DNA from: an uncultured Fibrobacterota bacterium
GTDB lineage: Bacteria > Fibrobacterota > Chitinivibrionia > Chitinivibrionales > FEN-1185
Assembly (NCBI GenBank): GCA_963753345.1
Contig: CAVWBU010000026.1
Span: forward strand, 192,001 to 256,000
Direction of reading: 5' to 3'
DNA: 64,000 nucleotides
Position 1 is the first letter of the stretch; every line of letters starts with the position of its first letter. Below the pieces are notes generated by a model. It saw only the letters and a program-made list of their open reading frames with translations. It was not told where the DNA came from and ran no database searches. Shown piece after piece: positions 557-45,200 of the stretch. The translations under genes and the position numbers were made by a program.

Positions 557-718
557 GGGCGTTCCCCTCGCCTTTGTCAAGTCTCAGGCTTGGGTCGGCC
601 CTCCTTCCGGTCTCGCCCTCCGGCCTCGGGCTGCCTGCCGCGAGGGCCCTGCGGTCCGTGGTCAGGCAGCACCGCGCTTCAGCGCGGCCTCCAGTCCGCC
701 TAACGCGCGGCAGAGGAA
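557..718 (+). repeat. Structured repeat module A, copy 1
   Basis: GGGCGTTCCCC-hairpin-GGGTCGG...CCTAACGCGCGG, shared with 7 other loci. Confidence 0.9.
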
Positions 719-825
719 AAACATTTTGTCAATCTTTGCTTCTTGCGCCAAGCGGACATCCTGACGGAAATCAGCTAATGCTTTGAATTGATCTTCCTTC
801 AACTCTCCAACTGCATCTCAACCTT

Positions 826-1010
826 TCAACTCTCTTTCTCGGTGCCCCCGCAGCCAAAGTTTCTTTCTAGCAAATCAACCTACTTGGGGGCTACCCACGA
901 GGGGGAAGCGCAAGACCGGCGCGATTGGTTCGAATTGCAAATTGGGACCGCCGGGCTGAAGCGAGGGGGACGACCCTTGGAAGTACCCGACGGGGTAAAC
1001 TTCCTCCCAT
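826..1010 (+). repeat. Structured repeat module B, copy 1 (with 27-bp insert at 971-997)
   Basis: GGTGCCCCCGCA...GGGGGCTACCCACGAGGGGG-hairpin-GCGAGGGGGA..TTCCTCCC. Confidence 0.9.
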
Positions 1011-1072
1011 TAATGCCTTTCTTATATTTTACATGAAGTAGAATATAGAACCAGCAGGGATATGATTTTCAC

Positions 1073-4000
1073 ATGGATCACATCGGCCAGAAATTCCTCG
1101 ACCTCCTCGCATCAAAAACGCCCATATTATTCGACGGCGCCATGGGAACGCAGATCCAGGAGGCAGACGTACGCGCCGAAGATTATCGCGGCCATAACGG
1201 GTGCAACGAGATTCTTGTTCTGTCGCGGCCCGAACTCATTCTTGACATTCACAAGCGGTATCTCTGCGCCGGCGCAAACGTGATCGAGACCAACACCTTC
1301 GGCGCCAACAGTATAAAACTTTCCGAATACGGACTTGCCCAGAGCGTCCGTGAGATCAACGGCGCCGCAGCAACGATCGCTCGCAGGGCGGCGGAAGAAG
1401 CGCGCTGCGAGCACGCGTGCCTTGTGTGCGGTACCATGGGGCCCACCGGGCTTCTTTTGTCAACCTCGGGCGGCGGAAAGGGAAGACGCGCCTTTTCGGA
1501 GATTGCGGATGTATACCGCGAGCAGGCCGGCGCGCTTATTGACGGCGGGGCAGACCTGCTGCTTCTGGAAACCATGCAGGACCTCCGCGAACTGCGCGCC
1601 GCGGTCCTCGGTATACGGGGCATGCTTGACGAGCGCGGACTTGCCGTGCCGCTCATGGCGCACGCAACGGTCGATACGAACGGCCGCATGCTCTTGGGCT
1701 CCGATATTCCGGCGTTTCTCGGTGCCGCCGGAAACCTCGGGCTCGACTGCCTCGGTCTCAACTGTTCTACCGGCCCGCATGAGATGAAGCGCTCGGTTCT
1801 GGAACTTCTCAGACTCTATCCGGGCCCGGTTTCCATGATGCCCAATGCAGGTATGCCCGAAAACGTTGCCGGCCGGGCGGTCTACAAAATGGACCCCGCC
1901 GAATTCGCCGGCGCTGTCGCGCCCCTGGTCGCGGAAAACGGCCTTGGCATCGTGGGCGGCTGCTGCGGTACCACGCCTGCTCACATTACCGCCCTGCGCA
2001 GCGAGCTTGCGGGAAAGACCGTCGCAGCCCGCATTGTGTCCCAAAAAACGTATCTCGGGTCCGGCATTTCGGGCAAGGAGCTCGAAGGCAGTGCGAAGCC
2101 TCTTATCGTTGGGGAGCGGCTCAACACCCAGGGCTCGAAGAAGACCAAGGAACTGGTGCTGTCGCGCAATTTCGACGAGCTCTTCCAGGTCGCAGCCGAG
2201 CAGAGCAAGAGAGGCGCGACTGCCCTTGACATCTGCGTTGCGGTAAGCGAGCGCGACGACGAGCGGAAAACCATGGCCGATCTCGTGTCGTTTCTATCGG
2301 AGCGCATAAGCGTGCCCTTCTGCATCGACTCAACCGAGCCGAACGTGATCCGCGCCGCGCTGGAGGCTTGCCCCGGGTCTGCACTTATCAACTCGATCAA
2401 CCTGGAGCGCGGCGGAAAACGCGCGCGCGAAATTCTCGCCATGGCCCGCGAGTTCGGCTGCCCGGTGGTGGCGCTCACCATCGACGACGAGGGCATGGCA
2501 AAAACCGTGGCGAAGAAACTCGACTGCGCGCGCCGCATCCGTGATCTTGCCTGCGGCGAGTTTCTGCTGCCCGAGCGCTTTGTCTACGTGGACCCGCTCA
2601 CCTTCACGCTCGCGACCGGCGAGCCGGAAAGCGCCGACGCGGCCAAGATCAGCCTCGAGGCGCTGTTCCGGATCAAGGAGGAGCTGCCGGGCATGCGCAC
2701 CATCATGGGCGTGAGCAACGTGTCGTTCGGCCTTGCGCCCGCGTCGCGCCAGGTGCTCAACAGCGTCATGCTCCACTACGCCGCGCAGGCAGGCCTCGAC
2801 GCGGCGATCTTCAACCCGCTGCACCTGGACAAAATAGAAACCGTTGATCCGGTGCTGCGCGGCTTGGCCGAAGACCTGCTGTTCAACCGCAGGCCGGGTA
2901 CGCTTGCCGATTTTGTCAATGCATTTACGCATGCGACACCTTCGGCGGCGGCGCCGCAGTCGGCGTCAGCGCTGCCGCCCGAAGCGGCGCTGCGCGACAA
3001 GATCCTCAACCGCGACCGGCGGGAGCTTGCGGCCTGCATCGAAACACTGCTTGTGTCGCGCAAGCCCGAAGACATTCTTAACGCCGTGCTCCTTCCCGCC
3101 ATGGCCGAGGTGGGCGCGAGAATGGACAGGGGAGAAATGATCCTGCCGTTCGTGCTCCAGGCCGCCGAGGTGATGAAGGAGGCGCTCGAGATCCTCAAGC
3201 CGCGCCTCGCGGGCGGGGAAGCGGGCAGGCGCGGGAAGATCGTGATGGCAACGGTGTACGGCGACGTGCACGACATCGGCAAGAACCTGGTGGCGTCGAT
3301 TCTTGCAAATCAAGGGTACGAGGTGGTCGATCTCGGCAGGCAGGTGCCGCTGGACGTGATCGTCGCGGCGGTAAAAGCGGAGAAGCCGGACGCGCTCGGG
3401 CTTTCGGCGCTGCTCGTCACCACGAGCCGCGAAATGGCCGCGTGCGTTGCCGAGTTTGACCGGCTCGGGCTGCGCGTTCCGGTCCTTGTGGGAGGCGCGG
3501 CGGCGAACCGCGAATTCGCCCAGCGGATCGCGGTGCTTGACAAGGGCCGCACGTACGGCGGCGGCGTCTATTTTGCCAAAGACGCGTTCGAGGCGGCGAA
3601 AGTACTTGACGAAATAAGAAAGCGCGGGTCCGCGCCGTCCGGCGAGCCTGCGGCGGCAGCGACCGGAGCGCGCGAAGCCGCGCCGGCCGTTGCCACACCA
3701 GGGGCGCTTTCCCATCCGGAAATCGTGTCCCCGCAGTTTTACGGCACAAGCCAGGTGCTGCGCTGGGAATGCGACAAGCTTCTGTCGGGCATCGATACGC
3801 AGCGGCTTTTCAAGGGATATTTCGGCGGCGGAAATCTGGGGAAAGAAGAATTTGTTGCAGCTGCGGAAAAGGAATTCATGCCCGCGTTTGAATCGCTCAA
3901 ACGGGGAATCCTTTCCCAAGGTCTCCTTGACGCTGCAGGAATGTACGGGATCTTTCCGGTGTTTACCGACGACATCCGGCTGTTTGTTCTTGATCCGTCG

Positions 4001-4456
4001 GATTTCCACACCCAGCTTGCCGAATTTGTTCTACCGCGCACGGCGAAAAAGAACCGCTCCATCGCCGACTACTTCCGTCCCGAATTCGATGTTCTGGCTG
4101 TCCAGATCGTCACTATTGGAAAAGGCATTGACGAACAGCGCCGCAGGTTCATGGAGGCGGAAAACAAGCTGACCCACGGGTTTTATCTCAACGGCCTGGC
4201 AAATTTTCTCACCGAGCTCCTTGCCGACAAGACGACCGCGGAAGTGCGGCGCGCAATGTATATCGCACCGGACCGCGGCCGGAGGTACAGCTTCGGCTAC
4301 CCCGGTCTTCCCGGCGTGGAGCAGCAGGCCCGATTGTTTGAAATGCTCGGCGTGGAGGAGCGGCTCGGCGTGTCGTTGACAACGGGGTTTCAGATGGTGC
4401 CGGAGCACTCGACAATGGGGATTTTTGTGCATCATCCGCAGGCAGAGTATTTATAA
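1073..4456 (+). CDS. metH: Cobalamin-dependent methionine synthase
   Basis: FDGAMGT, GLNC and GGCCGTTP (Hcy/Zn domain), GERLN (pterin domain), DVHDIG (B12-binding), RYSFGYP (activation domain). Confidence 0.95.
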   Translation: MDHIGQKFLDLLASKTPILFDGAMGTQIQEADVRAEDYRGHNGCNEILVLSRPELILDIHKRYLCAGANVIETNTFGANSIKLSEYGLAQSVREINGAAATIARRAAEEARCEHACLVCGTMGPTGLLLSTSGGGKGRRAFSEIADVYREQAGALIDGGADLLLLETMQDLRELRAAVLGIRGMLDERGLAVPLMAHATVDTNGRMLLGSDIPAFLGAAGNLGLDCLGLNCSTGPHEMKRSVLELLRLYPGPVSMMPNAGMPENVAGRAVYKMDPAEFAGAVAPLVAENGLGIVGGCCGTTPAHITALRSELAGKTVAARIVSQKTYLGSGISGKELEGSAKPLIVGERLNTQGSKKTKELVLSRNFDELFQVAAEQSKRGATALDICVAVSERDDERKTMADLVSFLSERISVPFCIDSTEPNVIRAALEACPGSALINSINLERGGKRAREILAMAREFGCPVVALTIDDEGMAKTVAKKLDCARRIRDLACGEFLLPERFVYVDPLTFTLATGEPESADAAKISLEALFRIKEELPGMRTIMGVSNVSFGLAPASRQVLNSVMLHYAAQAGLDAAIFNPLHLDKIETVDPVLRGLAEDLLFNRRPGTLADFVNAFTHATPSAAAPQSASALPPEAALRDKILNRDRRELAACIETLLVSRKPEDILNAVLLPAMAEVGARMDRGEMILPFVLQAAEVMKEALEILKPRLAGGEAGRRGKIVMATVYGDVHDIGKNLVASILANQGYEVVDLGRQVPLDVIVAAVKAEKPDALGLSALLVTTSREMAACVAEFDRLGLRVPVLVGGAAANREFAQRIAVLDKGRTYGGGVYFAKDAFEAAKVLDEIRKRGSAPSGEPAAAATGAREAAPAVATPGALSHPEIVSPQFYGTSQVLRWECDKLLSGIDTQRLFKGYFGGGNLGKEEFVAAAEKEFMPAFESLKRGILSQGLLDAAGMYGIFPVFTDDIRLFVLDPSDFHTQLAEFVLPRTAKKNRSIADYFRPEFDVLAVQIVTIGKGIDEQRRRFMEAENKLTHGFYLNGLANFLTELLADKTTAEVRRAMYIAPDRGRRYSFGYPGLPGVEQQARLFEMLGVEERLGVSLTTGFQMVPEHSTMGIFVHHPQAEYL

Positions 4457-4521
4457 ATGTAGATTGAAGAATGTAGAATGTAGAATGAAATTTGCAATCT
4501 ACAATCTACAATCTACATTCT
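4456..4521. repeat. Inverted heptamer tandem repeats (ATGTAGA)n/(TCTACAA)n forming a hairpin after metH
   Basis: aatgtagaatgtagaat ... aatctacaatctacaatctacatt. Confidence 0.75.
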
Positions 4522-4649: not shown

Positions 4650-4958
4650 GAATTTAAATCAACAAGATCGCCTACGGCTTCAAGAATGACCGGCCTGTAC
4701 AGTGACCGTATTCACCTGACACCCCAAAATGCTATGCGCTTGAACGAATATAGAATTTTTACTTCACAGCTGTCGCTCCAAGGGTGCGCGCAACGGGTGT
4801 CTCGGTCTTGCCGCAGGCCCACCCACGCCGCACCCCGCGAAGCTCCCAAAGGCATTATAAGTCTATTGATTTGTTGATTGCAGCAATCGATTGTCAGGTG
4901 AATGCTATGTCAATGCAACTAAACTTTCGTCCCAGTTGTTCTTCCTTTACGCAGTGAA
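4650..4958 (+). repeat. Imperfect direct repeat copy 1; contains a decayed 3' end of a putative serine recombinase gene
   Basis: Aligns with 7345-7738. Translates to ..QQDRLRLQ../GLYSDRIHLTPQNAMRLNE..SQLSLQG. Confidence 0.7.
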
Positions 4959-7344: not shown

Positions 7345-7738
7345 CGACTTTGGCTGCATGCAAATGATGGGAGCAGAGGCCGTGCCAATCCATTCTGGCT
7401 CATGTCAAGGCAAACGGTTTACAATGATGGTTGTTACTTGACACCTAAGAATGCCATGAGCTTGAACGAATCAAAGATCTCCTCTTCACAACTGTCGCTC
7501 CAAGGGTGCGCGCTTATGTTTATCTAATTCCAAATTATCACCCTCTCCGTGCCGGAGAGGGCCGGGGTGAGGTTGTTCCGATCTTGCCGCAGGCCCACCC
7601 ATGCTGCACCCCGCGAAGCTCCCAAAGGCATTCAAATTTATTGATTGATTTGTTGATTGTAGCATCAATTGTTACGTGAATACGATATCAATACAACTAA
7701 ACGCCTCGTCCCAGTTGTTCTTCGTTTACGCATTGAAC
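7345..7738 (+). repeat. Imperfect direct repeat copy 2 (recombinase-tail remnant) with an inserted REP-like hairpin at 7541-7572
   Basis: LWLHAND/EQRPCQSIL/TVYNDGCYLTPKNAMSLNE..SQLSLQG, and near-identical cttgccgcaggcccaccca..gaagctcccaaaggcat. Confidence 0.7.
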
Positions 7739-8128: not shown

Positions 8129-8192
8129 ACCCTCACCCCGGCCCTCTCTACCCCTTCGGGTACTTCCAAGGGTCGCCTAGGGGAGAGGGAGA
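8129..8192. repeat. REP-like hairpin (CCCTCACCCC..CCCTCTCCC-loop-GGGAGAGGG family) with a 27-bp insert
   Basis: Same family at 7541-7572, 35003-35052, 44952-45033, 60265-60326 and 63512-63599. Confidence 0.8.
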
Positions 8193-9858: not shown

Positions 9859-9902
9859 GATGGAGAAGATACTTTTTCTAAAAAACAAAATCTAAAAAAT
9901 AT

Positions 9903-10050
9903 TGGGGGAGAGGTATCTCCCCCGGCCTCGGCCTCCTCGCCGCTTTGCGACTGCGGTGTCCTCGGCTCGCCCCCCTCCTGCGTGGTCCCCTTGATGGAGC
10001 AGATGCAAGCGCGAGACATTGTTGCGGGGCACGCACGAGAAAGTAGTTGA
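9903..10050 (-). repeat. Module B, copy 2
   Basis: Reverse-strand GCGTGCCCCGCA..GGGGACCACGCAGGAGGGGG..GGGGGAGA..TCTCCCCC. Confidence 0.8.
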
Positions 10051-10153
10051 GCGGTTGGGAAGTTGAGGGGTTGAAATGCCAGGAAATGAGATTCTGTTAA
10101 TTCTTGCAGATGCCGATGGCGCAAGGATTAGTTCTTGACTGAGGAGATTTCTT

Positions 10154-10297
10154 ATTTCAGCGCGTTAGGTGGACCGTAGGGTGAGCTGGAGCGAATTGCC
10201 GCCTGATCCCTAGCCGAAGGCGGTTGGGACAGGCGGCAACGAGGCCGAACGGCCGAGCCCGAAGGGAGACCGACCCCGCCAAAGGCGGGGAACGCCC
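10154..10297 (-). repeat. Module A, copy 2
   Basis: Reverse-strand GGGCGTTCCCC..GGGTCGG..CCTAACGCG. Confidence 0.9.
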
Positions 10298-10376
10298 AGA
10301 TTTTTTCAACAATTACCAAATAATATCTGCATGTGGTATTTTTTTCTTTCACTCAATCTTAAGAAAAGGATCCATC

Positions 10377-33566: not shown

Positions 33567-33682
33567 GGCCCACCTCGACGTTTTGAGGGTCGTGCTACGA
33601 ATAGAAGGCGGAAAAGAAAAACCCTCTTGGCTGAAAAGACAAAAGGGTGAAATGTTCATCCGTAAAGGGGAAAGCAGGCTTT

Positions 33683-33967: not shown

Positions 33968-34118
33968 GATAAGTGCCCCCTTCGGATGGATACGGCGGTT
34001 TCGCGGTATTAACAGTAAGAGAATATAGCTCTGTGATATTCGCCGGGCAAGAAAATAGTTACGGCAAGGTTTGACAAAAGGACCCGCCTGGCCGCCGGAA
34101 AAAGACCGGCAGCGGCAC

Positions 34119-34691
34119 TCACGGCGCGGCCTCCGGTGCCGCACACGACAGTACCCCGTTGATCTGGTCTTTTGTCAATGCCGCCTTGAGGCTCACGGTC
34201 CAGCCCTTGCCCGTGCGGTGGCCCTGCTTTGCGGTCACGAACGATGCCGCCAGTCCCACGCATCGGGCCAGGGATTCCTCTGAGACCGTGTTCGTATCGG
34301 TGCGGGGCCGCAATTGCTGCACGATTTTCTTTATGGCTGCCCCCCGCGCCGCCTCGCGCGCTTCGTCGAGCGATTCGCGGCCCGCGGTGGCGGTCGCGGA
34401 GACGGACTTGAGCGTCACGGTCCTGCGCGGCAGCGCGTTCCCTGCAGTGTCCGCAAAGTCCCATGTCCTGTCTTCATGGAGCACGATGTTCTTGTCGCCA
34501 TATACGTTCACGGTGGTTTCGCCCGGCAGGGCAGCGGACGTTCCGCCGCCTTTGATGCTCCACGTGTAATCGTCGTGGAGTACGAGCGTGCGGCCGTCCG
34601 AAAGGGTGACATTTTCGTCGGCGGAAGATACGGGCAGCACCGCGGCTGCGACAACAAGGAATGCCGAAATGAAAAAGGACATGATGCGCAT
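34119..34691 (-). CDS. Secreted protein with DUF3157-like repeats
   Basis: VTLSDGRTLVLHDDYTW and IVLHEDRTW; signal peptide. Confidence 0.6.
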   Translation of the reverse strand: MRIMSFFISAFLVVAAAVLPVSSADENVTLSDGRTLVLHDDYTWSIKGGGTSAALPGETTVNVYGDKNIVLHEDRTWDFADTAGNALPRRTVTLKSVSATATAGRESLDEAREAARGAAIKKIVQQLRPRTDTNTVSEESLARCVGLAASFVTAKQGHRTGKGWTVSLKAALTKDQINGVLSCAAPEAAP

Positions 34692-34802
34692 GATCGGCCT
34701 TTCGTGCTTGGGAGATCTATCCAAAGGCGTAAGTCTGCTTCACAAAATAGATTGGTGAATGGGAGGCAGGCAAATTGGCTACTTTTATAAAGAGGGAATA
34801 TT

Positions 34803-34950
34803 GTTGGTGGGGGAGGTGTCCCCCTGGCCCCCGGCTGCCGTCCCGATGGGACGGCGATCCGGGGGCACACCCCCTCGTGGGTAGCCCCCAAGAGAGTTGA
34901 TTTGCAAGAAAGAAACCTCGGCTTCGGGGGCACCAAGAAATAGAGTTGAA
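34803..34950 (-). repeat. Module B, copy 4
   Basis: Reverse-strand match to copies 1 and 6. Confidence 0.9.
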
Positions 34951-35090
34951 AGTTGACGGTTGACAGTTGACAGCAGGAATATAAAGGAAACAATCTACAT
35001 TTCCCCTCTCTACTTGTGGAGAGGGATGGCCGTGACAGCGGCCGGGGTGAGGCGACGGTTTGGCGCGAGAAACACTAATTTACAAAAGAT

Positions 35091-35266
35091 ATTTCCTCTG
35101 CCGCTGCGTTAGGTGGACCGGAGGGTGAGCTAGAGCGAATTGCCGCCTAACCACGGCCCGCAGGGCCCTTGTGGCAGGCGGCAACGAGGCGAATAGCCGA
35201 GCCCGGAGGGAGACCCGACCCCATGCAGAGCCGCATGGCTGTGCGGCTCTGCATGGGGGAACGCCC
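35091..35266 (-). repeat. Module A, copy 5
   Basis: Reverse-strand GGGCGTTCCCC..CCTAACGC. Confidence 0.9.
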
Positions 35267-35404
35267 AACTCTTTGTATTGATTTTCAAGTTATTCTACCA
35301 AGGATGGACATTATTAGCCCTTGTCCTCACCCCTCGCCAAAGGTATAATTGTACTCTCAGGTTCATCTTCTCAATTTACCCTGGTTCAAACCCAAGGAAT
35401 GCCC

Positions 35405-37729
35405 ATGGATTCAAAGTCTTTGTTTACGTTTCTCCGGGAAAAGGTCGAGCTGTTCAAGGATTTTCCGGAAGACAAGCTGAAGGAACTCATCGATGGTTCG
35501 CGTCTGACAACGTTCGAGAACAACGAGGCGGTTATCAAGTTCGGGGAAGAGGGAAGGTTTCTGGGTGTGCTGCTTTCGGGCCAGGCTGAGGCTGCGGTGA
35601 CCGACAACACCGGCCGCAAGGTGCGGCTCAACCTTCTCGAACCGGGCAGCATCTTCGGCGAGATTTCCCTGATGACCGGGAACCAGACCATAGCAAACAT
35701 TATCGGCATACGGCGGTGCGAGGCGCTCCTCGTTCCGCAGCAGCTGTTCTCCACCATGCTTGTCACCCAGCCGTCGGCCATCCGGTACCTTTCGCGCACC
35801 ATGACGACCCGAAGCACGGAGTGGGCGGCCCTGAGCAACCTCGCGGCCGAGGCCGTCCAGAAAAGCGACGACCCCTACGGCCTGCGGCTCTTCACCGAAA
35901 CGCCGTCGAAGTTCCTTGTTGTCAATTGCGGTTCGTCGTCGCTCAAGTATTCGCTGTTCGACACGGCAAACGAGTCGCGCGTGGTGCGCGGCTCGGTGGA
36001 GCGCCTCGGCATGCCTGCCGTTAAGCACACGTGCCGCGTGGGCAACGAGGAAAAGGACGTTGTTGCGCCGCCCGCAGGCGGCGGTCACCGCGAGGCGTTC
36101 CTCGCAATGGTAAACGCGCTTTCGTCAAAGGCCGTTAGTGCCATGGGTGGTCCTGCCGACGTCACGGCCGTGGGCCACCGCGTGGTGCACGGCGGCGACA
36201 AACTCAACACGCCCGTGGTGATAACGGGCGACGTGATCGCGGCCATCGAAGAGGCGTCGTCCATCGCGCCGCTGCACAACCCGGTCAACCTGATCGGCAT
36301 CCGCGAGGCAATGAAGCTGTTCCCGCACGTGCCCCATGTTGCCGTGTTCGACACGGGCTTCCATCACACCCTGCCGCCGTATGCGTACATGTACGGACTG
36401 CCGTACGAGTTTTACAAAGAGAAAAAGATCCGGCGCTACGGTTTTCACGGAACGTCGCATCTGTACGTTTCGCTCAAGGCGGCCGAGTTCCTCAAACGGC
36501 CCTTTTCGGGCCTCGACCTCATCTCCTGCCACCTGGGCAATGGCGCGTCGCTGTGCGCCGTGGACCACGGCCGGAGCGTGGACACGTCAATGGGCTTCAC
36601 GCCGACGCAAGGTTTGCTTATGGGAACGCGCAGCGGCGACCTTGATCCCGGCATCCTGATCCACCTGATGCGCACTGAGAAAATGGGCGCCGATGACCTG
36701 GAAAAGCTCATCAACAACAAAAGCGGATTTCTGGGCGTGTCGGGCATCACCAACGACATGCGCGAAATAGAGATCGCGGCGCAGCAGGGCCATCACCGTG
36801 CCCTCCTGGCATACAAGACGTTCTGCTACCAGATCCGCAAGTACATCGGCGCGTACGTGGCGGCCATGCAGGGGCTCGACGCGGTGATCTTTACAGGCGG
36901 GATAGGCCAGGGGAGCGCAGGCGTGCGGAGCCTTGCCTGCCAGGGTCTGGGCTACATGGGTATCGAGATCGACGAGACAAAAAACCGCAGCATCGACGGA
37001 TTCGCTTCTGTAAACGACATTTCTGCCGACGGCGCCCGTGTGAGGGTGCTCGTGGTCCCCACCGACGAGGAGCGCATGATCGCCCGTGAGACCATCCGCG
37101 CGGTGTCGTCCGGCTACATCGGCGACATCCTCAAGGCGCAGAAGAGCACGCCCGTGCCCATCGAAGTGTCGGCGCACCACGTGCACCTGGCCGCGGAGCA
37201 CGTGGAGGCGCTGTTCGGCAAAGGCAGCACGCTCACGCCCGAGCACGAGCTGTCGCAGCCGGGCCAATTCGCGTGCAAGGAAACGGTCAACCTCGTTGGC
37301 CCCAAGGGACGCGTTGAGCGCGTGCGCGTGCTCGGGCCCGTGCGCAAGGAAACCCAGGTGGAAATCGCCATGACCGAGCAGTTCAAGCTGGGCATCCACC
37401 CGCCCATCCGCGAATCGGGCGACCTGGAAAACACGCCCGGCATCACCATCGAGGGAACGGCCGGCTCGGTCGCCATCCCCAAGGGCGTGATCTGCGCGCT
37501 GCGGCATATCCATATGTCAACCGAGGACGCGCTCAAGTTCGGCCTGCGCGACAAATTCAAGGTGCGCGTGCGCGTGGAAGGGGAGAGGGAATTGGTATTC
37601 GGCGATGTTCTGGTGAGGGTCAATCCGCAATTTAAATTGGCAATGCATATAGATACCGATGAGGGAAACGCGGCGAATATCAAGACGGGCGCGGTGGGGC
37701 ATATTGAGGCGGTACAAACAAGAGATTAG
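35405..37729 (+). CDS. Fusion: cNMP-binding domain + acetate/propionate kinase + PduL-type phosphotransacylase
   Basis: FGEISL (CNB); NCGSSSLK, GHRVVHGG, APLHNP, RRYGFHGTSH, FTGGIG (AckA); SAHHVHL, LSQPGQFA, RVLGP, RHIHM, HIDTDEGNA (PduL). Confidence 0.92.
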   Translation: MDSKSLFTFLREKVELFKDFPEDKLKELIDGSRLTTFENNEAVIKFGEEGRFLGVLLSGQAEAAVTDNTGRKVRLNLLEPGSIFGEISLMTGNQTIANIIGIRRCEALLVPQQLFSTMLVTQPSAIRYLSRTMTTRSTEWAALSNLAAEAVQKSDDPYGLRLFTETPSKFLVVNCGSSSLKYSLFDTANESRVVRGSVERLGMPAVKHTCRVGNEEKDVVAPPAGGGHREAFLAMVNALSSKAVSAMGGPADVTAVGHRVVHGGDKLNTPVVITGDVIAAIEEASSIAPLHNPVNLIGIREAMKLFPHVPHVAVFDTGFHHTLPPYAYMYGLPYEFYKEKKIRRYGFHGTSHLYVSLKAAEFLKRPFSGLDLISCHLGNGASLCAVDHGRSVDTSMGFTPTQGLLMGTRSGDLDPGILIHLMRTEKMGADDLEKLINNKSGFLGVSGITNDMREIEIAAQQGHHRALLAYKTFCYQIRKYIGAYVAAMQGLDAVIFTGGIGQGSAGVRSLACQGLGYMGIEIDETKNRSIDGFASVNDISADGARVRVLVVPTDEERMIARETIRAVSSGYIGDILKAQKSTPVPIEVSAHHVHLAAEHVEALFGKGSTLTPEHELSQPGQFACKETVNLVGPKGRVERVRVLGPVRKETQVEIAMTEQFKLGIHPPIRESGDLENTPGITIEGTAGSVAIPKGVICALRHIHMSTEDALKFGLRDKFKVRVRVEGERELVFGDVLVRVNPQFKLAMHIDTDEGNAANIKTGAVGHIEAVQTRD

Positions 37730-37762
37730 ATATATAATTATCTCAAGTCAAGAAGAATGTCT

Positions 37763-37937
37763 GGGCGTTCCCCCTTGTAGAGGCACACGGCCGTGCGCCT
37801 CTACAAGGGGTCGGCCCTCCTTCCGGTCTCGGCCTTCGGCCTCGGGCCGCCTGCCACGAGGGCCCTGCGGGCCGTGGTCAGGCAGCACCGCGTTCTAACG
37901 CGGCCTCCAGTCCTGCCTAACGCGCGGCAGTGGAAAT
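37763..37937 (+). repeat. Module A, copy 6
   Basis: First arm holds GTAGAGGCACACGGCCGTGCGCCTCTAC. Confidence 0.9.
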
Positions 37938-38040
37938 CTATTTAGTCAAATATTTATTCTCGCGCCAATCGATATTCAAAACACGCATACGTAAACGCGT
38001 CTACGCGTGTACCTGCCAAATTCTCAACTTCTCAACATCT

Positions 38041-38205
38041 CAACTACTCTTCGTGGGTGCCCCCGCACAGGTGCATGGTTCTGCAACTGCTTCTACTTGG
38101 GGTGCACCCAGGAGGGGGTAGCGGAAGCCCGGCACGCGTGTGATCTCAAGAGTCAATATCGTGCCGCGTGCCGGGCTGGAGCGAGGGGGAAACTTCCCCC
38201 ACATG
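38041..38205 (+). repeat. Module B, copy 5
   Basis: Close to copy 3, with a longer variable arm. Confidence 0.9.
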
Positions 38206-38237
38206 AATATTATAAAACGATGCTTGACAAATAACTT

Positions 38238-39266
38238 CTACGCCTTTTCCGCCAACTCTTTAATTAGTCTCTCCGTATCATCCCACCCCAGACACGGATC
38301 GGTAATCGACTTCCCATATACATTTTCATCCGGCTTCTGCGTTCCTTCCTCAATAAAGCTCTCGATCATGAGGCCGCGAACGATTTTCCGCAGCGTGGGG
38401 GACTGTCTTCTGCTCTCCATGATCTCGAGCGCGATCCTCGGCTGGTCCTTGTACCGCTTGTTGGAATTGGAGTGGTTGGTGTCGACCACGATTGCCGGAT
38501 TGACAAGCCCGCGCCGGTGGTATTTCTCCGCGCAGAGCATGAGGTCCTCGTAGTGGTAGTTGGGGATGTTCTGCCCGTAGTGGTTCACCGCGCCGCGCAG
38601 CACCGCATGCGCGTGCGGGTTGCCGCTCGTGCTCACTTCCCACCCGTTGTAGAGAAAAACGTGGCCCGTCTGCGCCGCCGCAATGGCGTTGAACATCACC
38701 TCCATGTCGCCGCTTGTAGGGTTCTTGGCGCCCACCGGAATGTCAAGCCCGCTCACGGTGAGGCGGTGCGCCTGGTTCTCAACCGAGCGCGCGCCGATTG
38801 CGACGTACGAAAGCAGGTCTTCGAGGTAGGGATAGTTTTCCGGGTACAGCATTTCGTCGGCTGCGGAAAGCCCGGTCTCGGAGAGCGCGCGGATGTGCAT
38901 GCGCCGTATGGCGCGCAGGCCCTCCACGATGTTCGGCTCCTTCTGCGGGTCGGGCTGGTGAGCCATGCCCTTGTATCCCACGCCCATGGTGCGGGGCTTG
39001 TTGGTGTAGATGCGCGGCACAAGGATGAGGCGGTCTTTCACTGCTTCGCCGGTCTTGGCGAGCCTGTTGATGTAGTCGCACACCGCGTCTTCGTCGTGCG
39101 CCGAGCACGGGCCGACGATGAGCACGAATCGGTCGGTTGTTCCCGACAGGGCGTCGATGATGTCGCGATCGCGCTGCTGCTTGATGTCGGTGAAGTATTT
39201 TGACAAGGGCATCTGCGAGAGAATTTCCTTGACTGTGGGGACTTTCTTGAGTTTCTTGAAGCTCAT
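38238..39266 (-). CDS. 3-deoxy-7-phosphoheptulonate (DAHP) synthase, class I (AroF/G/H-type)
   Basis: GPCSAH, KPRT.G.GYKG, IGARS, KNPTSG, DTNHSNS, SITDPC. Confidence 0.93.
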   Translation of the reverse strand: MSFKKLKKVPTVKEILSQMPLSKYFTDIKQQRDRDIIDALSGTTDRFVLIVGPCSAHDEDAVCDYINRLAKTGEAVKDRLILVPRIYTNKPRTMGVGYKGMAHQPDPQKEPNIVEGLRAIRRMHIRALSETGLSAADEMLYPENYPYLEDLLSYVAIGARSVENQAHRLTVSGLDIPVGAKNPTSGDMEVMFNAIAAAQTGHVFLYNGWEVSTSGNPHAHAVLRGAVNHYGQNIPNYHYEDLMLCAEKYHRRGLVNPAIVVDTNHSNSNKRYKDQPRIALEIMESRRQSPTLRKIVRGLMIESFIEEGTQKPDENVYGKSITDPCLGWDDTERLIKELAEKA

Positions 39267-39450
39267 GGATATTTCCAATACAATAAAGGGTGATGACTGA
39301 AACGGAAAGTTACCTTTTGAAATATACAATCAAGAGATGTGATTTAGGTGGGGGAAGTGCCCACTTGTAAGTAAGAAAGGCGGAAATTGGGCGCCCCGCC
39401 GCTATGCGGCGGAACGCCCAATTCTTCTTTCTATCGTACTTACCATGCAG

Positions 39451-40677
39451 TCAATAATCCGCTATTATCTCCTCGCCATTGACAACTACGAGTCTCGCCT
39501 CCGGCTCGCCCATGATGAGTTCTTCGAGAAGGTCGGCACCGGGTTTCTGCGGAAAGCGCAGGCCCGTGATGTCGGCCCGCAGCCCCGTCGCAAGGCTTCC
39601 GATTTGTGAAGATGCGCCGAGCGCGGCCGCCGGGTTTGAGGTGATCCAGCGGAGCATGTCGGCCGCCGGCACATGGGGGTACGCGCGCCGGGCGCAGAAC
39701 AGTTCGTCGAACAGGTTCATGGAGCGCTCGAGCGAGAGGCTCTCGGTGGCGGCGCAGAGCAGCATGCCGCGGTTGATCGCGGCGTCGAGCGGGAAAGCCT
39801 TGTGGCCCGCTTCGCGCGAGTACTGGAAGCAGAGCACGATGGACGCACCGAGCTCGGCAAGCCGCGAAAGCTCCTGGCCGTTGACGTAATTGCAGTGGTA
39901 GCAGATCGCTCCCGGCGGGATCAGGTTTTCCGAAAGCGCGCAGTCCATGGAGCCCGTGGTCACCCGGCCGAAAGGCCAGGGCTTTCGGCGCGTCATCTGA
40001 AAATAGAGGTCGCCGGTCTGATCGGAAAACGCCTGGAGCTCCTCTGCGCTCTCCGCGACATGGCACGACCACAAATACCCGTTTCGGCGTCCGAACTCGG
40101 CAAGGGCCGCGTGAGCGTCCGGCGACAGCGAGTACACCGCATGCGGTCCTACCCCGGTGGCGGCGCGGTCCGCGGCCGCGCCGATACGGTGGGAAAGCGC
40201 GACGACGATTTCGTTCTCGTCCTCGGCCGTCTCGGGGTGCGCCTCGTGGAACACATAGGAGCGGATAGGCTCCTGCGCAAGCACGCGGCCGGAAATTCCC
40301 CTTTGTGAACAGTCCGCCACGGTGGTGATGCCGGACGAAAGCATTTCCCTGGTCGCGAGCCGCACCGCGTTTTCAATCGCGGCGTCGGAACAATGGCGCA
40401 GCCGCGTGCCGCGCTTCGCGGTCCACGAGGCGAATGTTTCGTTTTCGGCCCTCGGCATGTCGCGCACTACGTTTTCCTCAAGGTGCGTGTGGATGTTGAT
40501 GAGGCCGGGCAGAAGAAACATGTCGCCGAGGTTCACCACGCGGTCTTGGTCGCCGTGTTTCGTCCAGCCCCTTGGTCCGGCGCTCAGGATACGGCCGTTC
40601 TCCACGGATACTGCCGCGTTGTGAAGCACTTCGAAGGAGGGGAGAAGGACCCATTTGGCGAAATAAATAGTAGCCAT
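39451..40677 (-). CDS. Metal-dependent amidohydrolase (nucleoside deaminase-like)
   Basis: PGLINIHTHLE, GITTVAD, PHAVYS, HVAES, G.L..G.RAD. Confidence 0.85.
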   Translation of the reverse strand: MATIYFAKWVLLPSFEVLHNAAVSVENGRILSAGPRGWTKHGDQDRVVNLGDMFLLPGLINIHTHLEENVVRDMPRAENETFASWTAKRGTRLRHCSDAAIENAVRLATREMLSSGITTVADCSQRGISGRVLAQEPIRSYVFHEAHPETAEDENEIVVALSHRIGAAADRAATGVGPHAVYSLSPDAHAALAEFGRRNGYLWSCHVAESAEELQAFSDQTGDLYFQMTRRKPWPFGRVTTGSMDCALSENLIPPGAICYHCNYVNGQELSRLAELGASIVLCFQYSREAGHKAFPLDAAINRGMLLCAATESLSLERSMNLFDELFCARRAYPHVPAADMLRWITSNPAAALGASSQIGSLATGLRADITGLRFPQKPGADLLEELIMGEPEARLVVVNGEEIIADY

Positions 40678-40720
40678 GTGATGAGGTGCAAAATAAGTCT
40701 TCCAAGAGACGAGAAGATCT

Positions 40721-40885
40721 GGGCGTTCCCCTCCCCCTCGACAAGCTCGGGGTCGGGTCGGTTCTCCTTCCGGTCTCGGGCCATGCCCTCGGGCCGCCAC
40801 GGCCCTATGGCCCACAGGGCCGGGTCCGGGCGGCATCCCGCTATGGCGGGACCTCCAGTCGCCCCTAACGCGCGGAAACGGAATT
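40721..40885 (+). repeat. Module A, copy 7
   Basis: GGGCGTTCCCC..GGGTCGG..CCTAACGCGCGG. Confidence 0.9.
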
Positions 40886-40966
40886 CTATTCAGTCAATTA
40901 CCTATTCTTGCGCCAATTGGAATCTCAGGGAGAAAAGCAACATTCTTGATGTTAACTTTTCAACTA

Positions 40967-41116
40967 TTCAACTCTCTTTCTCGGGTGCCCCCGCAGCCGA
41001 AGCTTGTTTCTTGCAAATCAACTCTCTTGGGGGCCACCCACGAGGGGGTATGCCGCCCGGATCACCGGTGCGCAGCGCCGGAAGCCGGCAGCGAGGGGGA
41101 CACTTCCCCCACCAAC
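40967..41116 (+). repeat. Module B, copy 6
   Basis: GGGTGCCCCCGCA..GGGGGCCACCCACGAGGGGG..GGGGGACACTTCCCCCAC. Confidence 0.9.
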
Positions 41117-41242
41117 TAAGTACTATTTACCAAAAATTCTAGAAATTACAGTTGCACATCAATCCATCACGGAGCCATTTTTGAGGGCTGTCGAAAATGC
41201 GACGCGGGCAAAATTGGTTTATTACTCAGCCGAGAAACGTTT

Positions 41243-43894
41243 ATGAACGCCGCCCCCAACGCTCCGAACCGGCCTGCCCCGAAAAGGTCCCTTCTCAAGT
41301 CAAAAACCGCCGCCGATGCAAGGAAGCTCATTGACGCATGCGCATGCACCGAAGGCGAGGCGTTTCGCATTCTGCAAACCGGGCAGGCCGGGCTCTCAGC
41401 GCAACAGGCTGCGGAGCGCCTCGCTACGGTAGGTCCCAACACCCCGGCGTCGGCGCGGAAGACTTCCGCATTGGTGGACCTTTTCCAGCGCGGAAAGGAC
41501 CCGCTGGTGATCCAGCTCATGGTGATAAGCGTCGTGGCACTGCTCATGGGCGACGTGCGGTCGGCCGTGGTGGTGGCGCTCATGCTGATGCTGAGCGTGG
41601 TGCTCGCCTATGTTCAGGAGCAGCGCTCCATCCGGGCGGCCGAGGAGCTCAAAAAGCTGGTTCAGACGTCGGCGCTGGTGGTCCGCGACGGCAAGGAACA
41701 GGAGATACAGCTGTCCGAGGTTGTTCCGGGCGACCTTGTGGTGCTCGCGGCCGGCGCCATCATCCCCGCCGACATCCGCGTCGTATCGGCAAAAGACTTC
41801 TTTGTCAACCAATCGTCCATGACCGGCGAGTCCATGCCCGTGGAAAAGGGCCCGGCGGTCGCGGCCGCGCCGGTGACCGAGGCGCTCGACCTCCCCAACG
41901 CGTGCTTCCAGGGGAGCACCGTGGTGAGCGGTTCGGCCAGGGGCGTCGCGGTGTGCACCGGAGGGTCAACGCTGCTCGGCGCCATCGCGCGCGACGTGTC
42001 GCGCGACAAGGAGGCCACGAGCTTTGACAAAGGGGTAAAATCGTTCGTATGGCTCATGGTGCGGTTCATGGTGGTGATGGTGTCGGCGGTGTTTCTTATT
42101 GTGGGCATCACCAAACACGACTGGATGGAGGCGCTTTTGTTCGGGCTTTCGGTGGCCGTGGGTCTCACGCCCGAGATGCTCCCCATGATAATGACCGTGT
42201 GCCTGTCCAAGGGCGCCATCGCTATGTCGCGGAAAAAGGTTATCGTCAAGAAGCTCAAGGCCATTCAGAATTTCGGGGCCATGAACATATTGTGCACCGA
42301 CAAGACCGGCACGCTCACGCAGGACAAAATCGTGCTCGAACGGTACGTCGACGTCACCAACCGGCCCAGCGAGGACGTGCTGCGCTACGCCTACATGAAC
42401 AGCTACTACCAGACCGGCCTGAGAAACCTGCTCGACAAGGCGATACTGGGCCACGAAGACCTCGATGTGGAACGCTCCTGCCGCAAGGTCGACGAACTGC
42501 CATTTGATTTCGTGCGCAAGCGCATGTCGGTGGTTATCGACAGCGAAGACATGCATGTTCTTATCTGTAAAGGCGCGGTCGAGGAGGTGTACGGCGTTTC
42601 CACCTATTACCAGGTGGACGACGACATTTACCCCCTGTTTGATGTTGTGCGCAACGATCTCATGGAGGAGTACCAGCGCCTGAGTTCCGACGGCTACCGC
42701 GTGCTGGCGGTCGCCTACAAGGAATTCCCTAAAGACAAGGAGTCGTTTTCCGCAGCGGACGAAACCGGCCTGGTGCTGCTCGGGTACCTCGCGTTCTTCG
42801 ACCCGCCCAAGGAATCGTCGGCGCAGGCCATCAAGGCGCTCTCGGAAGCGGGCGTCGCGGTGAAGATCCTCACGGGCGACAACGAACTTGTCACGCGCAA
42901 CGTTTGCAGGAACGTGGGGCTGGACGTGGACACCGTGATCACCGGTTCCCAGCTCGCCGGGCTTTCCGAGGAGCAGCTCTGTAAGACGGTGATCGAGGGC
43001 GTGGCGTTCGCCCGTCTGTCTCCCATGCAGAAGGAGACGATCATCGAGTGCCTCAAGCGCCAGGGCAAGACCGTGGGCTTTCTGGGCGACGGCATCAACG
43101 ACGCGGCGGCGCTCAAGGCCGCCGATGTGGGCATTTCGGTGGACACCGCGGTGGACATCGCCAAGGAATCGGCCGACATCATCCTCCTCGAGCGCAGCCT
43201 GCTCGTGCTGGAGGAGGGCATCAAGGAGGGCCGCAGGATTTTCGCGAACATCATCAAGTACATCAAGATGGGCGCGAGCTCGAATTTCGGCAACATGTTC
43301 AGCGTGGTGGGCGGCAGCTACTTTCTGCCCTTCTTGCCCATGGCGCCCATACAGGTGCTGCTCAACAACCTGCTCTACGACATATCGCAGACCGGCATTC
43401 CCACCGACCATGTCGACGAGGAACTGGTTGCGAAGCCGCAGGCCTGGGACGTGGGGTTCATCAGGCGGTTCATGATGATTATCGGGCCTATAAGCTCGAT
43501 ATTCGACTATGCCACGTTTTTTCTCATGCTGTACTTCTTCAAGTGCATTGTGTTTTCGCATGAGGGAACGTCCCACGAGATGAAATCGCACCTCGAATGC
43601 CTGTTTCACACCGGGTGGTTCATCGAATCGATTTTTACCCAGACGCTCATCGTCCACATCATTCGGACCAACAGGATCCCCTTTCTGCAAAGCAGGCCGA
43701 GCGCCGGACTCCTGTTCTCCACCCTCGGCATTCTCGCGGTGGGGGCGTACCTGCCGTATTCCCCTTTGGCAACATACCTCGGCCTCGTGCCGCTGCCGCT
43801 TGTCTACTGGGGGTGGATTGCCGGGTTTATGGCCTGCTACGCGCTCATCACCAACACGGTGAAGCAATGGTTTAACCGCAAATACGGAGTGTAA
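41243..43894 (+). CDS. mgtA: Magnesium-translocating P-type ATPase
   Basis: TGES, VGLTPEMLP, DKTGTLT, GDGINDA, ASSNFGN, TGWF.ES..TQ. Confidence 0.93.
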   Translation: MNAAPNAPNRPAPKRSLLKSKTAADARKLIDACACTEGEAFRILQTGQAGLSAQQAAERLATVGPNTPASARKTSALVDLFQRGKDPLVIQLMVISVVALLMGDVRSAVVVALMLMLSVVLAYVQEQRSIRAAEELKKLVQTSALVVRDGKEQEIQLSEVVPGDLVVLAAGAIIPADIRVVSAKDFFVNQSSMTGESMPVEKGPAVAAAPVTEALDLPNACFQGSTVVSGSARGVAVCTGGSTLLGAIARDVSRDKEATSFDKGVKSFVWLMVRFMVVMVSAVFLIVGITKHDWMEALLFGLSVAVGLTPEMLPMIMTVCLSKGAIAMSRKKVIVKKLKAIQNFGAMNILCTDKTGTLTQDKIVLERYVDVTNRPSEDVLRYAYMNSYYQTGLRNLLDKAILGHEDLDVERSCRKVDELPFDFVRKRMSVVIDSEDMHVLICKGAVEEVYGVSTYYQVDDDIYPLFDVVRNDLMEEYQRLSSDGYRVLAVAYKEFPKDKESFSAADETGLVLLGYLAFFDPPKESSAQAIKALSEAGVAVKILTGDNELVTRNVCRNVGLDVDTVITGSQLAGLSEEQLCKTVIEGVAFARLSPMQKETIIECLKRQGKTVGFLGDGINDAAALKAADVGISVDTAVDIAKESADIILLERSLLVLEEGIKEGRRIFANIIKYIKMGASSNFGNMFSVVGGSYFLPFLPMAPIQVLLNNLLYDISQTGIPTDHVDEELVAKPQAWDVGFIRRFMMIIGPISSIFDYATFFLMLYFFKCIVFSHEGTSHEMKSHLECLFHTGWFIESIFTQTLIVHIIRTNRIPFLQSRPSAGLLFSTLGILAVGAYLPYSPLATYLGLVPLPLVYWGWIAGFMACYALITNTVKQWFNRKYGV

Positions 43895-43896
43895 CC

Positions 43897-44709
43897 ATGA
43901 AGAGCCTTCTCTCGGCGCTCCAGGAAGGGCGCCTCGTGGAACTGCCGGACCCCAACAAGGAAAAGGCGCTGGAGTACCTTGCGCTGCTCATCGAGGCCAT
44001 TCCCGACGGGCACGCCCAGGCCGACATTGTCCAGGAAGTAAAGCAGCGGGAGGCGGCGGCGAGCACGGCGCTGGGCAAGGGCATCGCGTGCCCGCACGCG
44101 CGCAGGATCGGCGAGGGCGACCTGCTCTGCGCCGTGGGATGGTCGCCGCAGGGCATCGACTACGGCGCGCCCGACGGCCAGAAGGTGCAGCTCGTGATCA
44201 TGTACTTCATTCCCGACTCACAGCGCAATTCGTACCTCAAGGAGATCTCGGGCCTTGCCAAGGCCGTTGACAAAACAAAAGGCATCGCGTCCATCGCCAC
44301 CGCGGGCGACATCCATGCCGTCCGCAGCCAGCTGCTTGACTGGGTCGGATACGCCATCGACTCCGCGATCCCCGATGCCAAGGCGCGGATGATCAAGCTT
44401 CAGGAGAAGCAGGCTGCCATCATGGCCGGCGAACCCGGCAAGGCGGCGCGGCCGTTTACCATCGTTCCGTTCTACGTTCTCGTGGCCGAGGCGGCAAAAC
44501 CCGTGGTGCTCGCACCCGACGCCGATTTCGTGAAGGCCATCGAATCGCAACCGTCAATTACCGACCTGCTCCGAAAGACCGACGCGTTCGAGTGCGGCGG
44601 TTACCAGATCATGGTGCGCTCGGCCTCGAGCTTCGCGGCCAACAGGGTTCTGCATGATTGTCTTGCAGTAAAGCCTGCTCAGAGTCCTGGATCTTCCAAT
44701 ACCAAATAA
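43897..44709 (+). CDS. PTS EIIA (Ntr/Fru-type) domain protein with C-terminal extension
   Basis: RE..STALGKGIACPHAR phospho-His motif, GIDYGAPDG..V. Confidence 0.85.
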   Translation: MKSLLSALQEGRLVELPDPNKEKALEYLALLIEAIPDGHAQADIVQEVKQREAAASTALGKGIACPHARRIGEGDLLCAVGWSPQGIDYGAPDGQKVQLVIMYFIPDSQRNSYLKEISGLAKAVDKTKGIASIATAGDIHAVRSQLLDWVGYAIDSAIPDAKARMIKLQEKQAAIMAGEPGKAARPFTIVPFYVLVAEAAKPVVLAPDADFVKAIESQPSITDLLRKTDAFECGGYQIMVRSASSFAANRVLHDCLAVKPAQSPGSSNTK

Positions 44710-44716
44710 TGAAGCT

Positions 44717-44890
44717 GGGCGTTCCCCCTTTGTAGAGTTGCACAGCTGTGCAACTCTACAAAGGGGTCGGTCTCCCTCCGGGCTCGGCCTGTCGGCCTCG
44801 TTGCCGCTTGTCCCAACCGCCTTCGGCGAGGGATCAAGCGGCAATGCGCTCTGGCGCACCACTCCGGTCCACCTAACGCGCGGCAGAAGT
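44717..44890 (+). repeat. Module A, copy 8
   Basis: First arm holds GTAGAGTTGCACAGCTGTGCAACTCTAC. Confidence 0.9.
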
Positions 44891-45052
44891 TGACATCCGC
44901 AATTTTACGCTCCTCTTCGCACTATTAATCAAATCGATGAGTACCTTTCGCTCCCCCTCTCCCCGTGGGAGAGGGGGACGGGGGGTGAGGTTCTCCCCCT
45001 TATCAAGGGGGAGGTGCCGAAGGCGGAGGGGGTTCTTCCGCAGTGGTTGCGT

Positions 45053-45200
45053 TGCAAAGGGGCGACGGCTCGCGAGCGCCAAGCGAGCGACATAGCCGCG
45101 CCCCTTTGCTGGAGGGGGTGTGCCCCGAGACCCCGCAGACGCGCAAAGCGCGGCGAGGAGGCTTGGGGCCAGGGGGAAACGCGAAGCGGTGCCCCCACCA
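45053..45200 (+). repeat. Module B variant, copy 7 (different first hairpin)
   Basis: GCAAAGGGGCG..CGCCCCTTTGC then GGAGGGGGTGTGC..GGCCAGGGGGA..CCCCCACC. Confidence 0.7.

Follow-up and report, generated by a model that had tools for sequence, protein, structure and literature searches.

The intergenic spacers of an uncultured Fibrobacterota bacterium of peat (FEN-1185; assembly GCA_963753345.1) contain a recurring two-part structure, and the question it raises is whether the two parts belong to a single RNA, to a mobile element or to separate repeats that keep company. The stretch analysed comprises 64,000 nucleotides of contig CAVWBU010000026.1 (positions 192,001–256,000; hereafter, the window). 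A first-pass annotation had noted in it a module A followed on the same strand by a module B in many gaps between genes, and had taken the pair to be one unit, either an unannotated structured RNA or a non-autonomous element mobilised in trans. The best reading of the sequence is that the modules are a new mosaic repeat family resembling bacterial interspersed mosaic elements (BIMEs) and BOX elements, with a putative mobiliser acting in trans for which no candidate gene was found here. In more specific terms, A and B would each be a family of its own, made up of structured interspersed repeats that neither code for protein nor move autonomously and that spread and are reshuffled by way of a folded single strand, a proposal to which we give an even chance.

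Profiles for nhmmer were built from an alignment of the six A-spacer-B loci of the window, and they detect eight A and seven B copies there, with E-values of 1e-17 to 1e-58. The number of A copies is that reported before, and all six loci at which A and then B had been placed on one strand were recovered as pairs, at 549–1001, 37756–38214, 40713–41123 and 44711–45210 on the plus strand and at 9893–10305 and 34796–35274 on the minus strand. The unpaired copies are A at 18664–18823 (minus) and 26262–26413 (plus) and B at 32842–32997 (plus). Two covariance models were also made, R1 for module A and R2 for module B, and at the threshold used for recovery within the window (E ≤ 0.001) R2 returns six of the seven B copies, the one missed being a divergent variant at 44998–45210. 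The motifs said to be kept in most spacers are real: GTCAA is exact in four of six, CT[TC]GCGCCA is found in five and TCAAC micro-repeats in five. Tandem Repeats Finder (TRF) reports arrays of period 7–8 at 10046–10074, 34944–34973, 38017–38049 and 40954–40973.

The whole assembly (G000; 4.52 Mb in 55 contigs, 94% complete) contains 424 A and 304 B matches at E ≤ 1e-3, covering 127 kb or 2.8% of the DNA, and the high copy number predicted from the window is thereby confirmed. Contigs of at least 25 kb carry 369 A and 268 B. Many of the 29 contigs shorter than 25 kb are 90–99.9% identical strain variants of parts of the large contigs, so the totals for the assembly are somewhat inflated; to judge from these contigs, the bin combines DNA of close strains. 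Breaks in the aligned blocks between strain-variant contigs often coincide with repeat modules. Contigs from four DNA runs, mapped to the window, likewise pile up and break at repeats, and their joints look like repeat-induced joins. Five congeners (G001–G005), among them G001 at 73% and G003 at 99% completeness, were available for comparison.

The linkage of A and B extends genome-wide and is far beyond chance, since 228 of the 424 A copies are followed within 600 nt by a same-strand B (median gap 49 nt between model ends), as against two with B upstream on the strand of A and three with B on the opposite strand within 900 nt. Beyond ~300 nt the spacing is estimated to resemble background. 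Clustering yields 456 loci, namely 208 A>B> (arrowheads give the strand), 120 A, 77 B, 28 A><A, 8 A>A>B>, 7 A>A> and a few others; two further A><A carry an additional A. The divergent pair <A A> does not occur among the 456 loci, and B followed by A on one strand is almost never seen in the assembly. The mosaic cassettes obey a fixed grammar, with A>B> as the most frequent form and then lone A, lone B and A><A.

Full-length copies of A are ~70% identical pairwise (217 copies), and its fold comprises a core of ~150 nt with ten helices, including a multi-way junction. R1 was made from the window copies with a hand-checked structure and was used to align 48 A copies, composed of the eight in the window and 40 picked for diversity. 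Pairing is retained in 92.8% of 1998 cells, compared with 79.8% in shuffles and 29–50% in a control with partners slid by 1–3 columns, and 32 of 44 pairs have changes on both sides, although the pairing and double-change figures are favoured by the fitting of the alignment to the model. Mutual information in an independent alignment of 242 A copies, anchored on a hidden Markov model (HMM), recovers several of the same pairs, with a signal that is partly due to subfamily structure. RNAalifold on a MAFFT alignment of the 217 copies gave no usable structure and was superseded by the HMM-anchored and covariance-model alignments. The closing helix P1 changes from GCGUU/AACGC to GCGCC/GGCGC in variant copies, which include both lone A copies of the window. 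As G:U pairs exceed A:C pairs by 71 to 15, a ratio that the fitting to the model favours as well, the named strand of A is the folding strand. The earlier description of a structured element with varying arms and conserved junctions is borne out for A by the 48-copy alignment.

Module B is more conserved in sequence than A and somewhat shorter (~175 nt versus ~210 nt). Pairing in 46 B copies amounts to 89.4% of cells versus 87.5% in shuffles, with double changes in 3 of 23 pairs; the covariation that had been proposed as a check is thus strong in A and slight in B. The outer helix of B consists mostly of U:G pairs, and its middle hairpin is exchanged wholesale between subtypes. The TCAAC tract ahead of B is a tandem array, in which CAAC recurs at a spacing of 8 nt in 260 cases and of 7 nt in 96; the 130 nt upstream of 295 anchored B copies hold 0–12 CAAC each, against 0.56 expected from base frequency. 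A G+C-rich mini-hairpin of 27 nt is nested precisely within the last-stem loop in 4 of 46 B copies. Either module can bear a nested mini-hairpin, and of the 82 found genome-wide 49 are located in modules, a further 23 lie no more than 400 nt from a module and 10 are elsewhere. The mini-hairpin looks like a separate tiny insertion element that prefers the loop of the last hairpin of B. A free-standing inverted copy is present in the window at 8149–8175.

The genealogies of the two modules are uncorrelated. Across 143 units on the large contigs, the similarity of A and the similarity of B give a Pearson r of 0.07; for the unit with the nearest A, the median B-similarity rank is 0.51 (0.5 being random), and it falls in the top tenth in 9.8%. 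Partners are also swapped at fixed sites. Two strain-variant contigs (C16 and C4) have the same B, identical from its first helix on, with or without A and the tract, and the gap before the P-type ATPase gene holds A>B> in G000 versus A><A in G001. The C4 and C16 versions were considered as empty and filled alleles and rejected, the difference being a replacement and not a simple insertion. Taken with the lone A and B copies and with the distant A-like copies that lack B (see below), these observations give no support to the view that A, spacer and B form one unit. On this evidence A-spacer-B is a preferred arrangement of separable modules, not a co-propagating unit.

Four window sites were compared with congeners. 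One <B<A cassette is kept in G001 with 81% identity; at the other three sites the A copies of G000 and G001 are 55–68% identical, next to flanking proteins that are 94–98% identical and fourfold sites that differ by 17–24%. Such low identity beside such similar proteins indicates that these three copies are not simply orthologous. Within G000, nearest neighbours have a median identity of 89.7% for A and 86% for B, from which it follows that copying or conversion went on after the species split. The site comparisons show a turnover of copies at shared sites that is faster than neutral divergence. At a few strain-variant sites the whole cassette is replaced together with ~40–60 nt on each side, with nearly identical flanks and abrupt ends at gene ends, and no donor closer than 80% was found in the genome. 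The gap of 121 nt at 39330–39450, where G001 has a full A>B>, was taken up as a clean empty site and discarded, as it holds a 75-nt remnant (39347–39421, minus strand) made of the 5' end of A and then the 3' half of the last hairpin of B. In this remnant the P2 hairpin is closed as a TTGGGCG/CGCCCAA palindrome, a form that is unique in the genome. The gap between the acetate-kinase and DAHP-synthase genes contains A>B> only in G000, an 8-kb island between inverted A copies in G001 and ~13 kb between A copies in G005. The island of G001 (G001:C477, 5350–13200) encodes an Eco57I-type restriction-modification enzyme, a PLD-helicase protein and an aspartyl-protease/SEC-C protein.

Among 61 relatives, 13 (G000 counted) match the A model at E ≤ 0.001, and weak A matches also occur in other families. 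A is present in four of the five congeners (G001, G002, G004 and G005), all 38 scored candidates matching in each, and both modules are abundant in these four. Matches to B per 150 scored candidates number 52 in G002, 51 in G004, 76 in G005, 0 in G003 and 1 in G006. Neither A nor B has a match in G003, and A has none in either of two sister genera. The two modules thus share one distribution, which is patchy and specific to certain lineages. The spacers of G003 are short at orthologous genes, from which it follows that the modules are dispensable. In a sample of 151 genomes of the phylum, 16 (including G000, and four outside the order) match A at E ≤ 1e-6, as weak A-like copies. The distant A-like matches comprise 14 from six genomes of other families or orders, 12 of them clear and two below 20 bits. 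Pairing in these distant copies reaches 91.8%, with 26 of 44 pairs doubly changed and slid controls at 34–46%; in several of them the long hairpin is shortened and the junction nucleotides are retained. No B was found within 2.5 kb of distant A-like copies (19 loci), the only matches being two 30-nt fragments at E ≤ 0.1.

Outside the folded parts, an A-rich run at −19 to −4 and a conserved A-N-T-T precede GGGCG (305 copies), and the last CCCCC is followed by ACCAAAA and then by a T-rich run at +10 to +21 (175 copies). The outer ends are weakly symmetric and of low complexity, with an A-run (ANTTGGGCG) on the 5' side, CCACCAAAA and then a T-run on the 3' side, and TTGG...CCAA; A by itself carries TTGGGCG ... 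CGCCAA. The claim that terminal inverted repeats are not evident needs amending for this weak TTGG...CCAA symmetry. No poly(A)-type tail is seen at the 3' ends. Rfam 15 gave no match in the window at gathering score, and at E ≤ 10 on two units it returned chance-level rows only; ARAGORN reported no tRNA or tmRNA. A promoter and terminator scan of 30000–47000 gave 13 terminator-like sites versus 19.1 expected, none of them at element ends, and one promoter-like site, which faces a TCAAC tract from the reverse strand. The region before A shows only the A-rich run and no conserved promoter. Phage and plasmid collections contain no module match. A motif scan of viral contigs returned five loci, by estimate about the number expected by chance, of which two match R1 weakly (25.6 and 17.3 bits) and none matches R2, and the five were discarded. 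The literature mentioning Chitinivibrionales, screened by title and start of abstract, included no work on repeats, and no wider literature search was made for this family.

Gene context was assessed with a crude gene set (longest open reading frames, ORFs, filtered by G+C content at third codon positions), by which 213 A>B> units could be classified: 56 occupy convergent and 40 divergent gaps, and in tandem gaps 40 are in sense and 77 in antisense orientation. Because the modules are present in every gene context, they are not riboswitches; the first-pass annotation had argued likewise against a cis riboswitch, and the surplus of antisense over sense units in tandem gaps agrees with it. Convergent gaps are over-represented, at 56 of 213 units versus 19% of all gaps. 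The upstream gene is co-oriented with the unit in 96 of 213 cases, and units lie at a median of 46 nt from the gene upstream and 29 nt from the one downstream. With respect to GC skew, orientation shows only a weak bias (150 to 129; 81 to 56). The genes that flank the modules in the window are unrelated housekeeping genes; one of them, the DAHP synthase, retrieved distant phyla only when used as query against genome contigs.

As a mosaic repeat family, the modules would be selfish or commensal DNA. One folded single strand, of DNA or RNA, would be read by a putative trans-acting factor, which would copy, insert or recombine the modules into AT-rich spacers at gene ends; recognition by this factor would preserve the fold, and effects on neighbouring transcripts would be secondary. 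A number of observations weigh against this reading. The HUH/Y1- or reverse transcriptase-driven mobiliser suggested earlier, to be looked for beside RAYT, TnpA or reverse transcriptase genes, did not materialise: PF01797 (Y1/RAYT) and PF00078 (reverse transcriptase) have no match in G000 or G001, and the TnpB domain has none in G000, with the caveat that multicopy genes can be missing from assemblies such as these. Y1 matches do occur in G002 (eight) and G004 (two), and G005 has weak Y1 fragments only. The single IS110-like gene of G000 is without a counterpart in element-rich G004, and tyrosine recombinase matches number eight in G000 versus seven in element-free G003; PF00589 has matches in all five genomes tested, no specific search for the intI subtype having been made. 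Paralogue clustering of ORFs produced no multicopy protein gene except a spurious ORF in 3–4 near-identical copies, presumably the rRNA-operon region. No ORF is common to the wider A...B pairs, and the ten ORFs that neighbour five distant A-like copies are ordinary, unrelated genes. No target-site duplication is readable at the sites compared, which are remnants or replacements; the recommended comparison of empty with filled sites in relatives was carried out on them and gave no clean empty site. Near-identical copies are almost absent once duplicated regions are set aside (the 95th percentile of nearest-neighbour identity is 96%), and no recent burst is visible in the sequences. Strain pairs with an identity of at least 97.5% show 24 differences in 3723 module positions, compared with 316 in 16116 third codon positions and 108 in 10233 positions of other intergenic DNA; the low rate in modules is a hint that they are constrained where they stand, something for which a pure parasite would have no use. 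Finally, junction nucleotides of A that are conserved across orders are as compatible with a conserved host partner as with a transposase.

It is conceivable, if quite unlikely, that the A core represents a functional nucleic-acid fold of a new class, which mobilises itself via conserved host factors without a dedicated transposase, with B, the octamer tract and the mini-hairpin as docking accessories. The core might then act as a ribozyme, or serve as scaffold or guide for a machinery of recombination or copying that has yet to be recognised.

Alternatively, the modules could be transcript elements that serve the host (terminators, insulators or barriers to RNA decay), selected at gene ends and using spread only as a means of delivery. 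The short distances to both genes, which leave the spacer nearly filled, would suit such a role, as would the A-rich and T-rich outer runs, which resemble an enlarged bidirectional terminator, and the excess of convergent and of tandem antisense gaps. The C/U-rich, G-poor TCAAC tract may also be likened to a Rho loading site, and the modules of close strains differ less than their synonymous sites. We nevertheless consider this explanation unlikely, as a strand-specific fold is difficult to reconcile with a gene orientation that is nearly free (96 of 213 co-oriented upstream genes), the T-run starts ~10 nt past the last hairpin, the terminator scan found fewer sites than expected and none at the ends, G003 and the two sister genera do without modules, and unrelated copies or partners replace one another at single sites. 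Folded single-strand recombination sites, similar in principle to attC and situated at cassette junctions where they would promote gene exchange, could account for the conservation of structure rather than sequence on one strand only, for the abrupt ends of replaced segments at gene ends and for the islands between A copies in the acetate-kinase/DAHP-synthase gap. With a module about every 10 kb and a single insertion site examined, the association of islands with modules may be due to chance; moreover, the copies lie on both strands among housekeeping genes genome-wide and not in co-oriented arrays, and no integrase correlates with them, tyrosine recombinases being about as numerous in element-free G003 as in G000. 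A role of this kind is accordingly very doubtful.

The possibility that A-spacer-B represents a gene family for one structured RNA of ~450 nt, transcribed as a unit, draws on the strict order and strand of A and B, on the complex covarying fold of A and on the G+C-rich hairpin with which B ends. It is highly improbable in view of the independent genealogies of A and B, the 120 lone-A, 77 lone-B and 28 A><A loci, the distant genomes with A-like copies but without B, the lack of a conserved promoter before A, and a spacer length and tract copy number (0–12) that vary freely. Movement as REP/REPIN- or SINE-like repeats (repetitive extragenic palindromes or short interspersed elements) by a RAYT/IS200-type Y1 transposase or a reverse transcriptase would have a parallel in the single-strand-specific hairpins and inverted A><A pairs, which recall REPINs, and some congeners do have Y1 genes. 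Such movement is hardly credible when G000, with more than 400 A copies, and G001 have neither PF01797 nor PF00078 and G005 has weak Y1 fragments only, when replication-strand bias is not strong (the skew figures above), and when a poly(A)-type 3' tail is lacking.

The mosaic repeat family, if correctly identified, departs from the usual bacterial interspersed repeats, which are short hairpins tied to a known transposase; here modules of 170–220 nt make up ~3% of the genome. The A fold matches riboswitches or small ribozymes in elaborateness and is retained across the phylum, and its mobilising gene was not found. Should an enzyme indeed read the fold, it would point to a mode of DNA movement or recombination that has yet to be described. 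On the practical side, the modules break metagenome assemblies, cause spurious ORFs and flank an inserted defence island at one site in G001.

The individual copies in the window were delimited with nhmmer and the covariance models, and their tracts in part with TRF. The first A>B> unit begins with a module A at 549–760 (plus; nhmmer 187.6; R1 212.9 bits over 553–756), in which the core fold is followed by an A/U-rich tail ending CTTGCGCCAA, and continues with an octamer TCAAC tract and module B at 806–1004 (plus; nhmmer 124.0; R2 109.1 bits over 830–1004). Repeat finding and alignment place a 27-nt mini-hairpin within the last-hairpin loop of this B, at about 969–997. On the minus strand, a module B with its tract (10046–10074) spans 9891–10068 (nhmmer, R2 and TRF) and the accompanying A spans 10108–10305 (nhmmer and R1). 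The lone A copies, at 18636–18823 (minus; nhmmer and R1, 102.1 bits) and 26238–26431 (plus; nhmmer and R1, 112.6 bits), both have the P1 variant GCGCC/GGCGC in place of GCGUU/AACGC. The lone B with its TCAAC tract lies at 32842–33001 (plus; nhmmer, R2 and TRF), with a GAATACA array (x4) ahead of it at 32793–32820. The second minus-strand unit consists of a B at 34794–34973 with a heptamer tract at 34944–34973 (nhmmer, R2 and TRF) and an A at 35055–35274 (nhmmer, R1 and site comparison), which is the copy retained at the same site in G001 with 81% identity. Three further units are on the plus strand. The first is formed by an A at 37756–37979 (nhmmer and R1) and an octamer tract (38017–38049) with B at 38017–38215 (nhmmer, R2 and TRF). 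The next has an A at 40713–40926 (nhmmer and R1) and an octamer tract (40954–40973) with B at 40950–41125 (nhmmer, R2 and TRF), and at the same site G001 has A and then an inverted A in place of B. In the last, an A at 44711–44934 (nhmmer and R1) begins 2 nt past the stop codon of ORF 43897–44709 and is followed at 44998–45210 by the divergent B, which is without a TCAAC tract (nhmmer 73.7; no R2 match at E ≤ 0.001).

Long spurious ORFs cross the G+C-rich modules, such as that at 40393–41142 (plus), and gene calling will probably yield false protein annotations at these places. Other intergenic tandem arrays are present in the window, with AATGTAG x4.6 (4456–4487) facing CAATCTA x3.9 (4495–4521) and GAATACA x4.1 at 32793–32820; beyond the TCAAC tract, heptamer and octamer arrays seem to characterise the spacers of this genome in general. 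A direct repeat of ~160 nt outside A and B (families D9 and D15) has two copies, at 4698–4856 and 7420–7632, that are 78–90% identical. Three minus-strand ORFs in tandem at 26613–30355 (398, 402 and 428 amino acids) have common repeats (D2, D3, D16 and D19) spaced 1248–1310 nt apart and are probably a tandem array of paralogues. The 802-residue ORF at 35321–37729 (plus) is a fusion of a cyclic-nucleotide-binding domain, acetate kinase and a PTAC phosphate acyltransferase domain.

Several known systems invite comparison. Large or multicopy structured RNAs include HEARO (IscB omega RNA), GOLLD, ROOL, OLE and multicopy motifs, and the modules resemble them in having a multi-helix fold backed by covariation, no coding capacity and, as in some of these classes, many copies per genome. 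They differ in lacking a match in Rfam at gathering score or at E ≤ 10, and HEARO adjoins its nuclease ORF, whereas five distant A-like copies adjoin ten ORFs that are unrelated, and no TnpB-type domain was found in G000. Integron attC sites are recognised as a folded single strand, conserve structure over sequence and are sited between genes, the latter two properties being shared by the modules. An attC site is one imperfect hairpin in a co-oriented array beside intI, in contrast to multi-helix modules on both strands across 55 contigs. As regards miniature inverted-repeat transposable elements, no related autonomous element with a transposase was found, the end symmetry is weak and of low complexity, and the sites compared offer no clean empty ones.

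The pneumococcal BOX elements are made of modules of ~45–60 nt. Their organisation is given as boxA-(boxB)n-boxC in a study that also treats RUP and SPRITE (Croucher et al. 2011, PMC3049150), where BOX is judged parasitic, with slow transposition and no identified transposase; terminal inverted repeats and target duplications are reported there for BOX and RUP, and neither could be shown here. As described in that study, BOX is similar to the present family by architecture alone in being modular with an internal unit of variable number (boxB there, the TCAAC octamer here), and similar as well in its lone modules, extensive predicted RNA structure and restriction to a species group. The AAAA/TTTT ends of SPRITE likewise recall the A-run and T-run. 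BOX folds are simple stem-loops there, compared with a far more complex fold and independent module genealogies here, and the modules of this genome are G+C-rich within AT-rich spacers.

REPs are described as simple palindromes of 20–40 nt (PMC3733652) and RAYT genes as obligately associated with them (PMC2817692); BIMEs or REPs and REPINs with RAYT transposases are documented for Enterobacteria, Pseudomonas and Stenotrophomonas (PMC2817692, PMC3337134, PMC3116915). As these elements are portrayed there, the likeness lies in hundreds of extragenic copies, a fixed mosaic grammar that includes inverted pairs, single-strand-specific hairpins, a species- or genus-specific distribution and dynamic copies at fixed intergenic sites. 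A cognate Y1 gene was not found in G000 or G001 (no PF01797 match), unlike in the REP/RAYT systems, and the modules are ~210 and ~175 nt with several helices where a REP is a short palindromic unit. The main arrangement also departs from the alternating orientation of BIMEs, being the direct A>B> (208 of 456 loci) and not A><A (28 of 456), and the A fold, unlike those of BIMEs and REPs, is kept across a phylum.

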